From positions 3,365,520 through 3,429,519 of the forward strand of contig OZ240215.1 in NCBI GenBank assembly GCA_965197585.1: 64,000 nucleotides of DNA. The letters are read 5' to 3'. Below are positions 12,513 to 15,653 of this stretch, piece by piece. The notes below the pieces were generated by a model, which saw only the letters and a list, made by a program, of their open reading frames with translations, was not told where the DNA came from and did no database searches. The position numbers and the translations under genes are program-made. The stretch is from Dehalococcoidia bacterium (GTDB taxonomy: Bacteria; Chloroflexota; Dehalococcoidia; Plut-88900). Every line of letters starts with the position of its first letter. Within the stretch, counting starts at the first letter, position 1.

Positions 12513-13793
12513 TTACGAGGTTGCCGGCGCAAGTGCGGGCACACCCGATATGTACAGTCTTCGCGGTGTCGGTGTAAAGACACTGAGAACCATCACTCCC
12601 AGGAACGCCGCGCTTCCAACCAGTAGTATCCACCCGGGGTTGAACACGTCGGCCAGGACCCCGTTAGCGAAGTATGAAAATGCCATAATCCCGCCGGCGT
12701 GAATCAGGTATATGCTGGTGATTCGACCACGAAGGTGATCAGGAGCTACCGACTGAATCATGATCGTAGCCATGGTCATGAAACCCGTATGAGAGATGCC
12801 TATAATCACGGTCCCCAACAGTGCCAGTGGCAGGGTGGGCGCTATTGCCAGAACGAAATTGCCTAGAGCGCTGACCACGGCCGTCACCAGGAAGAGTCGT
12901 CCTATCGCTGATTCCCTTCGCATTGGAGCAATTGCAACGGAGATTAATAGCGCACCAAAACCAACCATCATATGCATGTAGGCTACGCCGCCACCGCCGG
13001 AACCCAACCGGTTTTCCGAAATCGCTGGCACGAGCGATTCAAATGACATTATCAAAGTTCAGTGGAACAGCACTATCAGGATGATGCTTCGTAGCACCTT
13101 ATGGCCGTAGACGTATTTGAATCCTGAAAAAGCGTTGTCAAGCAAACCTTTGTCAGGATCTATGATGCCCGTAGATCGAGTGCGTATCCGGAGTACGAAG
13201 AATACCCCTACGCCGTAGAAAGCAGTGCAAGTGAAAAATATCCATTCCAGACCGACCACATCTATAATCGGTGCAATCACTCCGGGGCCTATCAGTCGGG
13301 TAGCGTAGTAGCCCGCGTTAACCAGGATATATGCGTTCGGCAGGACTTGCCCCGGTACCAGATTGGCAGCCAGAGATTCGATGGCACCCATGTGGACTGC
13401 CCTGGCGCATCCGTTGACGAAGGCCAGAGCAAGAATGTGCCATGGTTGCACCACGCCAGTGAGGACCAGAAGGGCCAGGGTCAAGCTATGCAAAAGGCTG
13501 ACGACGTAGGCTAACGTCAGTATGTTTCGTCGTATGAACCGGTCGGTTAAGTATCCGGCGATGATAGGTACAACGAACCAGGGGAGCATAGCTACGAGAA
13601 ATATCGCTCCCACCCAGGTGCTGGGATTACTGTCAGCCAGGTTGAAAATCAGCCACCCTTCGGCGGCTCCCATGGCCCACGATGCCGATTCGCCGAAGAT
13701 GTGCCCGAACCACATCACTCGATAATCCCGGTGGGCTAGGGCCGGCAAAAAACGCTGGCCCGCGTTCCGCTGAGCGCGCATGATGCCTAACAT
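12513..13793 (-). CDS. MFS transporter interrupted by one in-frame TGA (13059-13061): selenoprotein or nonsense allele
   Basis: Two ORFs in the same frame separated only by TGA; motif A GYLTDRFIRR, APDHLRGR, about 12 TM segments in total. Confidence 0.8.
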
Positions 13794-14669
13794 CTAGCTG
13801 CACCAGGTCTAGACGTGCCCACAATCATTCCCAGTAGCCACAGCTTTTTCCCCTCCAACGAAAACAAGCACACGAATTGCTGCCTCCACGCGAGACCTCA
13901 GCCACTACAGAAGGACAACTAGGGGATATCCTAGCACCAAACGCGAGCCATTACCTCGGGAATAGTGGGTGTAAGAGGACAACAGTTTGGCTGGGTAACC
14001 TGGATTTGGACCGAGGCTTACGGGTTCAGCAGCCGAGGCTACAAGAGCTGCCAAGGGTACCTGGCGTCTGGAATACCGGCGCCGTTCACTGAAGGGCAGG
14101 ATGTTGTGACTTATCGATTGGATGTCCTGTCCTTTTGTATTGACATTACCCATTGCCAGGTTCGCAGTACAATACGCGCCGGCCCACCACCCCGCACAAA
14201 TGCCCAAATCTCAATCTTGCCACTGCGTCTGAGCACATAAGCATACCCTTCAAAATTCCGTTTCGTCACCATGCGAAAATAGCGTCGGGCCCCTGCCTCG
14301 CAGCATCGGCAGCGTAAATTCTGTGGGCAGATAGGTTAAACAACTCGAATGGCACCCAGTGACCACACATGGTGCTCCGAGTAATGCCGCCAGCCCGATT
14401 TCCGCTTTGGTATAATTAGTTGAATCACAATTAACATTTCTTTTTCTGACGAAAGCCTAAACACGAAGGTCCCAATTTGCGCTCCACAATGAAACAGTTC
14501 AAATCACAGGTGTGGATCGCAAAATCACTCCGGAAGAGTACACAAAACTACAGCTCATCGACACAGATTTCGTCCTCGCGAGGTTTTAAGCGGCTAGCCA
14601 AGGCCGAAGAGGTGGAGCATTTTCCTCATTTCCCCTATAGGTAGATTCTTAGTCAGCTGGTACATCCTA

Positions 14670-15653
14670 GTGCCGGCTATGGTGGGCATGGGCATAGCGG
14701 CAGGTGTGCTGGGCTTTGTCTACCTGACTCCCGGCAAACCCCAGATTGGGGTCATAGAGGTGCCCTACACCGTCATCAATGATCGCTCTGCCTTCGCTAT
14801 CGGCCAATACATCGACTACGCCCGTCGAGATGACTCCATAAAGGCTGTGGTGATTAAACTGAGCACTCCCGGTGGAGGCGCCTCAGCCAGCGAACGCTTA
14901 TACAACGAGACCCGCAGGCTCCGTGAAGAAAAGCCGGTGGTGCTAGTTATGGGTAACCTGGTAGCTAGCGGCGGCTACATGATGTCGATGGGCGCATCCT
15001 ACACCTACGCTCAGACATCTTCACTGGTGGGGAACGTGGGAGTGATTTTCTCCACGGGCCCCCTGATCCCGGAACTTCCCGACGAGGGGCTGGTCTTCAG
15101 CAGCCCCAACAAGCTGGATGGAGGCACCAGGAGAGAGTGGATCGGGACGGTGGACATGCTTAATGAAGCCTTTGTACAAATGGTGGTTAGCGAACGGGGA
15201 GACAAACTACGTATTTCCAGGGATGAACTTGGCACGGGACGCCTTTATCCCGGAATGGTTGCAGTGAGACTGGGATTGGCTGACGAGGTTGGAAGTTATA
15301 GTGACGCGATCGAAAAGGCCGCCGACTTGGCGGGAATCTCCAACTACGGATTCGTAGACGTAAACTTGGAAGTGTTGCAGGAATTCGTCCAGGAGCTCGA
15401 TTTTGTCTTTACACTCGAAGGCGGAGATGGAGACCTGTCGGGAGCCCTTTCCTTCCTATCCAATCCCTCCCGAGACGGGGAGCCCCTGCCCTCGGAAGGC
15501 GAAACGGGTAGCGCCCTGACAACTCTCCGTACCCTGAGAGACTTGATGCTGGACCAGGGCCTCGGAGCAGACGGGGAGGGAGCCCTCCCGGGGTTACCCG
15601 TCGACATACAGCGCCCGGAAATCTATTACCTGTACGTTGGGTATGACCCTTAA
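14670..15653 (+). CDS. S49 (SppA-like) peptidase
   Basis: IKAVVIKLSTPGG, KPVV, ASGGY, GNVGV, GLADEVG; N-terminal TM; true start may be slightly upstream. Confidence 0.88.
   Translation: MPAMVGMGIAAGVLGFVYLTPGKPQIGVIEVPYTVINDRSAFAIGQYIDYARRDDSIKAVVIKLSTPGGGASASERLYNETRRLREEKPVVLVMGNLVASGGYMMSMGASYTYAQTSSLVGNVGVIFSTGPLIPELPDEGLVFSSPNKLDGGTRREWIGTVDMLNEAFVQMVVSERGDKLRISRDELGTGRLYPGMVAVRLGLADEVGSYSDAIEKAADLAGISNYGFVDVNLEVLQEFVQELDFVFTLEGGDGDLSGALSFLSNPSRDGEPLPSEGETGSALTTLRTLRDLMLDQGLGADGEGALPGLPVDIQRPEIYYLYVGYDP

Follow-up and report, generated by a model that had tools for sequence, protein, structure and literature searches.

A Dehalococcoidia transporter of the major facilitator superfamily with a candidate selenocysteine in transmembrane helix 7

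To address whether a TGA lying in frame inside a transporter gene ends the gene or encodes selenocysteine (Sec), we analyzed a 64,000-nucleotide stretch of DNA from a Dehalococcoidia bacterium (contig OZ240215.1, positions 3,365,520 to 3,429,519; the whole stretch is called the window, and plain coordinates are counted from its first letter). An earlier note on this DNA had reported a single TGA in a gene for a major facilitator superfamily (MFS) carrier with both halves otherwise intact, and the reading frame bore this out: the minus-strand frame starts with the ATG at 13793 and has 244 open codons up to the TGA at 13061-13059, which lies in the context LIVLFH*TLIMSFES, and a further 181 open codons lead from there to a TAA at 12515-12513. 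The coordinates of the gene and of the features discussed below are collected in Table 1. Beyond the start codon, about 870 bases (13794-14669) contain short open reading frames only, up to the next long one, which is S49 peptidase-like (14670-15653).

Table 1. Positions of the transporter gene and of the features in and after its TGA codon
Feature	Position in the window	Strand	Remarks
MFS_3-type transporter, complete coding sequence	12513..13793	minus	426 residues including putative Sec245, plus TAA stop; from open reading frames and translation
UGA codon 245, putatively read as Sec	13059..13061	minus	directly follows invariant His244
Predicted TM7, residues 232-263	13005..13100	minus	motif H244-U245-x-x-x-M249-S-F-E
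SECIS-like hairpin, core	13033-13040 paired with 13019-13026	minus	8-bp stem
SECIS-like hairpin, extended	13015..13043	minus	11 bp, one bulged U, TTTGAATCGCT...AGCGATTTCGGA
Invariant run, 35 nt	13017..13051	minus	in G000, G010, G002, and G001; longest in the gene

The read-through product matched the Pfam families MFS_3 (PF05977; 130.2 bits, cut-off 27) and MFS_1 (PF07690; 77.5 bits, cut-off 33.4), with the matches spanning residues 19 to 410 of the 426. The AlphaFold2 model (pLDDT 84.6, pTM 0.85) has 12 long helices, and the 50 best matches listed in a Foldseek comparison with the PDB were all MFS transporters with TM-scores of 0.57 to 0.75; model and comparison together agree with the 12-helix, two-domain MFS fold. 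The Foldseek matches listed were generic MFS folds with no more specific relative among them, and the sole match by sequence among solved structures was a weak and partial one to the glucose transporter GlcP. DHA3-type exporters (TIGR00900, EntS, Tap, Tet(V)) have the MFS_3 family in common with the transporter. The best NCBIfam matches were the H+ antiporter subfamily TIGR00900 at 120.3 bits and the enterobactin exporter EntS (NF007792) at 76.7 bits, both far below the cut-offs of these models (319.6 and 324, respectively), and we did not assign the protein to the DHA3/EntS-type exporters proper. In the model, DSSP assigned helices to residues 232-247 and 249-263 with a break at residue 248, which places residue 245 in the middle of TM7, three residues ahead of the break.

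A search of 5.8 billion proteins returned 269 matches, and a cysteine occupied the TGA column in all 120 full-length homologues analyzed (the best 120 of the 269; 59-79% identity). The few with a name among these 120 were labelled as MFS transporters of the SAR202 cluster, Dehalococcoidia, or Chloroflexota, except for one labelled Rhodospirillales. Their motif at this column in TM7 is F-H-C-x-L-x-M-S-F-E (F-H-C-T-L-V-M-S-F-E when written out in full). The Cys-form orthologues (e.g., P0002-P0121) resemble the TGA gene in their 12-helix layout, in the TM7 motif, and over their full length; they differ in having TGC or TGT in place of TGA, in varying at the synonymous sites 3' of this codon, and in having mostly lost the hairpin. 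Cys was likewise found at the TGA column in 22 of 22 paralogues from related genomes (42-55% identity), two of which belong to the window's own genome. The alignment thus matches the TGA to Cys in two or more homologues, with TGA/Cys pairs forming the majority; this pairing, along with a conserved TGA, serves as a criterion for bacterial selenoproteins in PMC1088965 (section 18).

The Cys forms belong to a subfamily that can be told apart from other MFS_3-type proteins. Among the 150 best representatives clustered at 50% identity, 120 were full-length, and His-Cys was present at the site in 55 of them, extending down to about 26% identity. Conservation of the residues H244, C245, M249, S308, M339, and M370 reaches 85-100% among these 55 representatives but 2-40% only among the 63 full-length distant relatives that lack the His-Cys motif.

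The TGA itself recurs. Six of the 12 genomes of the order, from three genera, have an orthologue with TGA at the identical column: four in the window's genus (96-100% protein identity), the others in a second genus (87%) and a third (74%). Each of the six orthologues has exactly one TGA and no other stop in the 181-183 codons downstream, so that an in-frame TGA is conserved here in at least two different sequences, as selenoprotein criteria ask. A scan with one genome per species found five TGA loci besides the window's own and 15 loci with TGC or TGT. Outside the order, no TGA form was found in a class sample of 401 genomes or in a phylum sample of 401 genomes. A distant match with a TGA in G411 (28% identity) was rejected: the His-Cys motif is absent and the TGA lies beyond the aligned part. 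Among metagenome contigs, a degenerate 26-nt pattern of the TGA form gave 86 matches, and none of the 80 loci taken from them encoded a relative (tblastn, E 1e-5), so these matches are taken as chance. In G001, and in that genome only, a Cys-form paralogue of 49% identity (L072:4574-5854) stands in tandem about 0.3 kb downstream of the TGA-form gene, and in G002 a phage-type integrase with the domains Arm-DNA-bind_3, Phage_int_M, and Phage_integrase (L070:5061-6218) lies 0.8 kb downstream.

An assembly or sequencing error at one base is a general possibility in metagenome-assembled genomes, and nothing beyond this speaks for it at the present site. The same TGA is found in six separate assemblies, and an independent study's contig (X4 record 23) that spans 12994-13385 differs from the window at 13296 only, leaving the TGA unchanged; the codon is therefore not unique to this assembly, and we consider such an error vanishingly improbable. 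Two contigs from RNA libraries (X15 record 10 and X16 record 14) also bridge the TGA, and such libraries can hold DNA.

If translation ended at the TGA, the downstream half would be free to decay. We computed dN/dS for six pairs with our own script (Nei-Gojobori), and values of 0.10-0.17 on the 5' side of the TGA are close to those of 0.14-0.25 on the 3' side, indicating purifying selection downstream of the codon as well. Synonymous divergence (dS) in the most distant pairs reached 1.1-1.6, and at dS above 1 a dead downstream half is not expected to have stayed open and conserved.

We examined the DNA 3' of the TGA for a selenocysteine insertion signal. After a spacer of 18 nt, the core of the hairpin begins with the 5' arm GAATCGCT (13040-13033), continues with the loop CGTGCC (CGUGCC in the RNA) at 13032-13027, and closes with the 3' arm AGCGATTT (13026-13019); the distance from the UGA to the loop is 26 nt. 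The geometry is as the earlier note had described it, with G at loop position 2 and a bulged U, and the extended hairpin is the minimum-energy fold that ViennaRNA gives for a 36-nt piece. A scan of 12900-13150 against Rfam, at E up to 10, returned no match. The fold stability of a 54-nt stretch was unremarkable (-11.3 kcal/mol, z = -0.61, with 49 of 200 shuffles equal or better), and on this z score we rejected hairpin stability as evidence.

Conservation of the hairpin gave a clearer result. The six TGA-bearing genomes all have the same hairpin sequence. When the genes of G000, G010, G002, and G001 are aligned at the nucleotide level, 66% of all columns and 41% of third positions are identical gene-wide, whereas the 35-nt run, which begins 10 nt past the TGA's first base and spans the hairpin, has no difference at any of its 13 third positions; the naive probability of this is about 1e-5 for a single alignment window and 0.004 over 417 such windows. 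The next longest invariant runs measure 12 nt, located on the TGA itself, and 11 nt. Between G000 and G001, synonymous differences per site amount to 0.16 in the 17 codons 3' of the TGA versus 0.68 elsewhere in the C-terminal half. Free variation is seen among Cys forms at the synonymous sites that are invariant in the TGA forms, and the homologous piece folds with a mean of -3.1 kcal/mol in Cys forms (n = 17) versus -8.9 kcal/mol in TGA forms (n = 5 loci), with the exception of the Cys form L057, in which a comparable hairpin folds at -10.3 kcal/mol. Compensatory changes were not found in the stem across the TGA forms; because the stem sequence never varies, covariation speaks neither for nor against pairing. 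An 8-bp stem and a 6-nt loop located 26 nt from the UGA, combined with invariance at synonymous sites, are the properties of a SECIS-type hairpin, and the predicted structure is more than chance, a conclusion that rests on its conservation and not on its fold energy. For comparison, the spacing between UGA and loop in other TGA-bearing genes of the genome is 16-27 nt, to which we give little weight, since the filter had already asked for stems of 6 bp or more, a G at loop position 1 or 2, and spacings within 14-35 nt.

These data bear directly on the nonsense mutation that the earlier note had held equally possible, that is, a change of TGC or TGT to TGA in a gene now dead or dying. A single base change does turn a Cys codon into TGA, the Cys forms use TGC or TGT, and the gene appears as fragments in public gene calls. 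Against this stand the presence of the same TGA in three genera at dS above 1, the low downstream dN/dS, the lack of a further stop in 181-183 codons in six genomes, and the run of invariant synonymous sites just 3' of the stop, which is not expected in a dead gene. We regard a pseudogene as extremely unlikely, and a codon read as Sec is the interpretation that all of the checks favor.

The fragments deserve separate attention. Public gene calls contain many C-terminal fragments whose first residue is Met249 (MSFESLVPAIS); the contigs that carry them reach 3.9 Mb, one cluster comprises 24 members, and a further clade of fragments (P0123-P0127, P0133) is 87-88% identical to the window's protein in the C-terminal half. 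We read these Met249-start fragments as probable additional TGA forms. They could also be taken to mean that the ribosome terminates at the TGA and begins anew at the ATG 12 nt on, with two six-helix halves assembling into a transporter, as there is indeed an ATG four codons past the TGA and gene callers begin the second fragment there. Such a cut would bisect TM7 in the model, no purine-rich ribosome-binding motif is seen ahead of the Met249 ATG, the conserved run lies mostly 3' of this ATG and not 5' of it, and the stop stands for an invariant Cys in an organism with the full Sec machinery. A split gene is accordingly given a very small chance, and we return to a single polypeptide with Sec at codon 245 as the preferred reading.

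The window's own genome encodes SelA (449.7 bits), SelB (TIGR00475; 369.6 bits, cut-off 242), SelD (385.4 bits), and a tRNA-Sec (65.8 bits) with the anticodon TCA, UCA in the RNA, so that one and the same genome has all four components on which a selenoprotein assignment depends. SelD has an in-frame TGA of its own in the motif HCAG-U-ASK. The selD gene (L013/L164, G000:C1:3357253-3358176) lies 7.3 kb before the window start and about 20 kb from the transporter gene.

Decoding of the UGA as Cys, Trp, or Gly without selenium was also considered, either by a suppressor or near-cognate tRNA or by a Sec pathway that, for want of selenium, carries sulfur. Cys insertion by the Sec pathway is possible when selenium is limiting, and this much is in favor of such decoding. 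TGA is, however, the stop codon in 449 of the 1644 open reading frames of at least 300 codons in this genome, which argues against a genome-wide reassignment and marks TGA as a normal stop; the constraint on the hairpin together with the Cys pairing is the classic signature of Sec, and many other genes of the genome have the same pattern. Read-through without selenium is, in our estimate, very unlikely.

Taken together, these results make it highly probable that the gene is intact and encodes a 12-helix transporter of the MFS_3/DHA3-like branch in which codon 245, UGA, is read as selenocysteine. The checks that the earlier note had asked for supported its proposal that an MFS carrier has Sec inside one of its transmembrane helices: Cys in the homologues, TGA in independent genomes, the Sec machinery, selection downstream of the TGA, and the unchanged TGA in a contig of a different study. 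None of the outcomes that the note had named as refuting, be it another residue than Cys in homologues, a TGA confined to this assembly, or a lack of Sec machinery, was observed. Judged by the criteria in use in the field (PMC1088965, section 18), the transporter with its putative Sec counts as a new selenoprotein family.

Neither the way in which the codon would be decoded nor the route from Cys to Sec departs from what is standard. SelB with Sec-tRNA(Sec), anticodon UCA, would bind the hairpin while the ribosome sits on the UGA; the hairpin, 18 nt past the UGA, would act as the bacterial SECIS, and Sec would be inserted in place of termination. The Sec would substitute, in the middle of TM7, for a Cys that is invariant in the distinct H-C-x-L-x-M-S-F-E subfamily, and the switch from Cys to Sec would have taken place inside one family of Dehalococcoidia, in which the close relative P0003 has Cys.

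To place this switch, we built a quick maximum-likelihood tree of 63 rows with SH-aLRT support only, comprising the six TGA forms, 52 database homologues out of the 120 (P0002-P0044 and a further nine), and five outgroup paralogues. The six TGA forms and the Cys form P0003, a database protein of 417 aa, make up one clade (SH-aLRT 95) nested among Cys forms, and within it P0003 and the G001 form are sisters (support 97). The tree needs two changes, either one gain of Sec and a reversion in P0003 or two separate gains. P0003 keeps the Val (in SLVPAIS) that is encoded by the hairpin-loop GUG in the TGA forms. We favor a single gain of Sec that was probably followed by a Sec-to-Cys reversion in P0003, because the hairpin is identical in both branches and this Val is kept.

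The many other TGA-bearing genes were examined in a genome-wide read-through scan, from which 15 of 187 filtered candidates were picked by eye. Twelve of the 15 match a Pfam domain: Rdx, GRDB (two), rhodanese, SelD, thioredoxin-like with NHL repeats, DSBA (the match running across the TGA), ferredoxin-thioredoxin reductase, UGSC, peptidase M20, luciferase-like monooxygenase, and CoA-transferase. Nine places in G000 (within L160-L169) have domains of known selenoprotein kinds, including Rdx/SelW-like and GrdB-like ones, and the ferredoxin-thioredoxin reductase frame has two TGAs. The genome, or its lineage, looks unusually rich in selenoproteins. Inside the window, the earlier note's expectation of a second likely selenoprotein was not confirmed, as a crude scan gave 20 other read-through candidates and none of them looked convincing.

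Three of the genome-wide candidates are of kinds that the main text of a 2026 review of prokaryotic selenoproteins (PMC13188914) does not name. The M20 peptidase (L168, G000:C1:1539389-1540612, minus strand) has its in-frame TGA in H-A-U-G-H-D-G-H and is matched in 10 of the 12 genomes of the order, down to 67% identity, with one TGA each; "M20" is absent from that main text. The luciferase-like monooxygenase (L170, PF00296, G000:C1:1158477-1159484, minus strand) has its TGA in A-V-U-N-G-G, and one TGA is kept in nine of the 12 genomes, all of one genus; its paralogues of 41-45% identity have no stop, and "luciferase" is again absent from the main text of PMC13188914. The CoA-transferase (L172, PF01144, G000:C1:922616-923590, plus strand), with its TGA in D-N-T-U-G-V, is matched in 11 of the 12 genomes, down to 60% identity, with at least one TGA, and the extra stops in these matches probably lie in the untranslated start of the query; CoA transferase is not named in the main text of the review either.

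The same review, in its main text, contains none of the terms MFS, major facilitator, PF05977, or PF07690. These terms are also absent from the paper on BSepDB and one supplement (PMC13326102; the statement concerns the paper and not the database itself), from the deep-Sep paper and four supplements (PMC12013277), and from the main text of the paper on the Global Ocean Sampling selenoproteome (PMC2398784), and full-text searches of the literature found no paper on an MFS selenoprotein. The predicted Sec-containing transport proteins named in the main text of PMC13188914 include the YeeE/YedE thiosulfate transporter family (GUxSG), the Cu/Zn efflux transporter of the SO_0444 family (UxC), SaoP as an ABC permease, a P-type ATPase that transports cations, and a mercuric transport protein. 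Like the transporter studied here, these are membrane transport proteins with Sec, but none of those named there is an MFS protein. In some selenoproteins, namely SaoB and SaoC along with the UXX-star family, Sec may be a metal ligand according to the same text.

What would Sec do in an MFS transporter? In the model, residue 245 and several of the residues that set the subfamily apart fall on TM7, TM10, and TM11. In the MFS fold, the walls of the cavity are formed in part by TM7 and TM10, with TM11 at their flank, which leads us to propose, tentatively and with less than even confidence, that His244, Sec245, and Met249 of TM7, Met339 of TM10, and Met370 of TM11 could form a thiophilic site in the central cavity. 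Soft metals, metalloids, and compounds of sulfur or selenium would be candidate substrates at such a site, and Sec in place of Cys might confer a higher reactivity or affinity. The gene neighborhood (eight neighbors within the window, 23 across ten related loci) revealed no conserved partner, no metal-related gene, and nothing that names a substrate, and the neighbors differ from locus to locus.

The nearest precedent among MFS proteins is the copper importer CcoA, which has an MxxxM motif (M233xxxM237) in TM7 and an HxxxM motif in TM8 (PMC8406296). On that description, CcoA/CalT proteins and the present transporter are both MFS proteins with membrane-buried Met/His-type motifs in the C-terminal domain, and U245xxxM249 in TM7 has the same spacing as M233xxxM237 of CcoA, a likeness of motif alone. 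The first TM7 ligand would differ, being a Cys/Sec that follows a His in the transporter and a Met in CcoA. A further difference is that Pfam places the transporter in MFS_3. Membership in the CcoA-like CalT family was rejected: TM8 (residues 268-288) reads GVAYMHMMVG and has no HxxxM motif, and H274 and M275 of this helix are not conserved across the His-Cys subfamily.

We hypothesize that this protein would be the first MFS selenoprotein and that its Sec, located in the cavity at mid-membrane, takes a direct part in transport chemistry, either as a ligand of a soft metal or metalloid or through transient Se-S or Se-Se chemistry with a compound of sulfur or selenium. This combined proposal is speculative, and we hold it to be possible but rather doubtful.

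The prokaryotic selenoproteome would gain a protein class through this putative Sec transporter, and the M20 peptidase, the luciferase-like monooxygenase, and the CoA-transferase stand beside it as candidates that the main text of the 2026 review does not name. In dozens of assemblies, public gene calling has cut the gene into two pieces, so that the family is invisible to surveys at the protein level.

Selenocysteine almost always marks a chemically active cysteine. A Sec in the cavity-lining helix of a secondary transporter would therefore point to a single residue with a central role in the function of a large and as yet unstudied transporter subfamily of marine Dehalococcoidia. If the proposal is true, the switch from Cys to Sec would mark the H-C-x-L-x-M-S-F-E subfamily, with its 55 of 120 full-length representatives among the 150 best matches, as reactive-thiol transporters.
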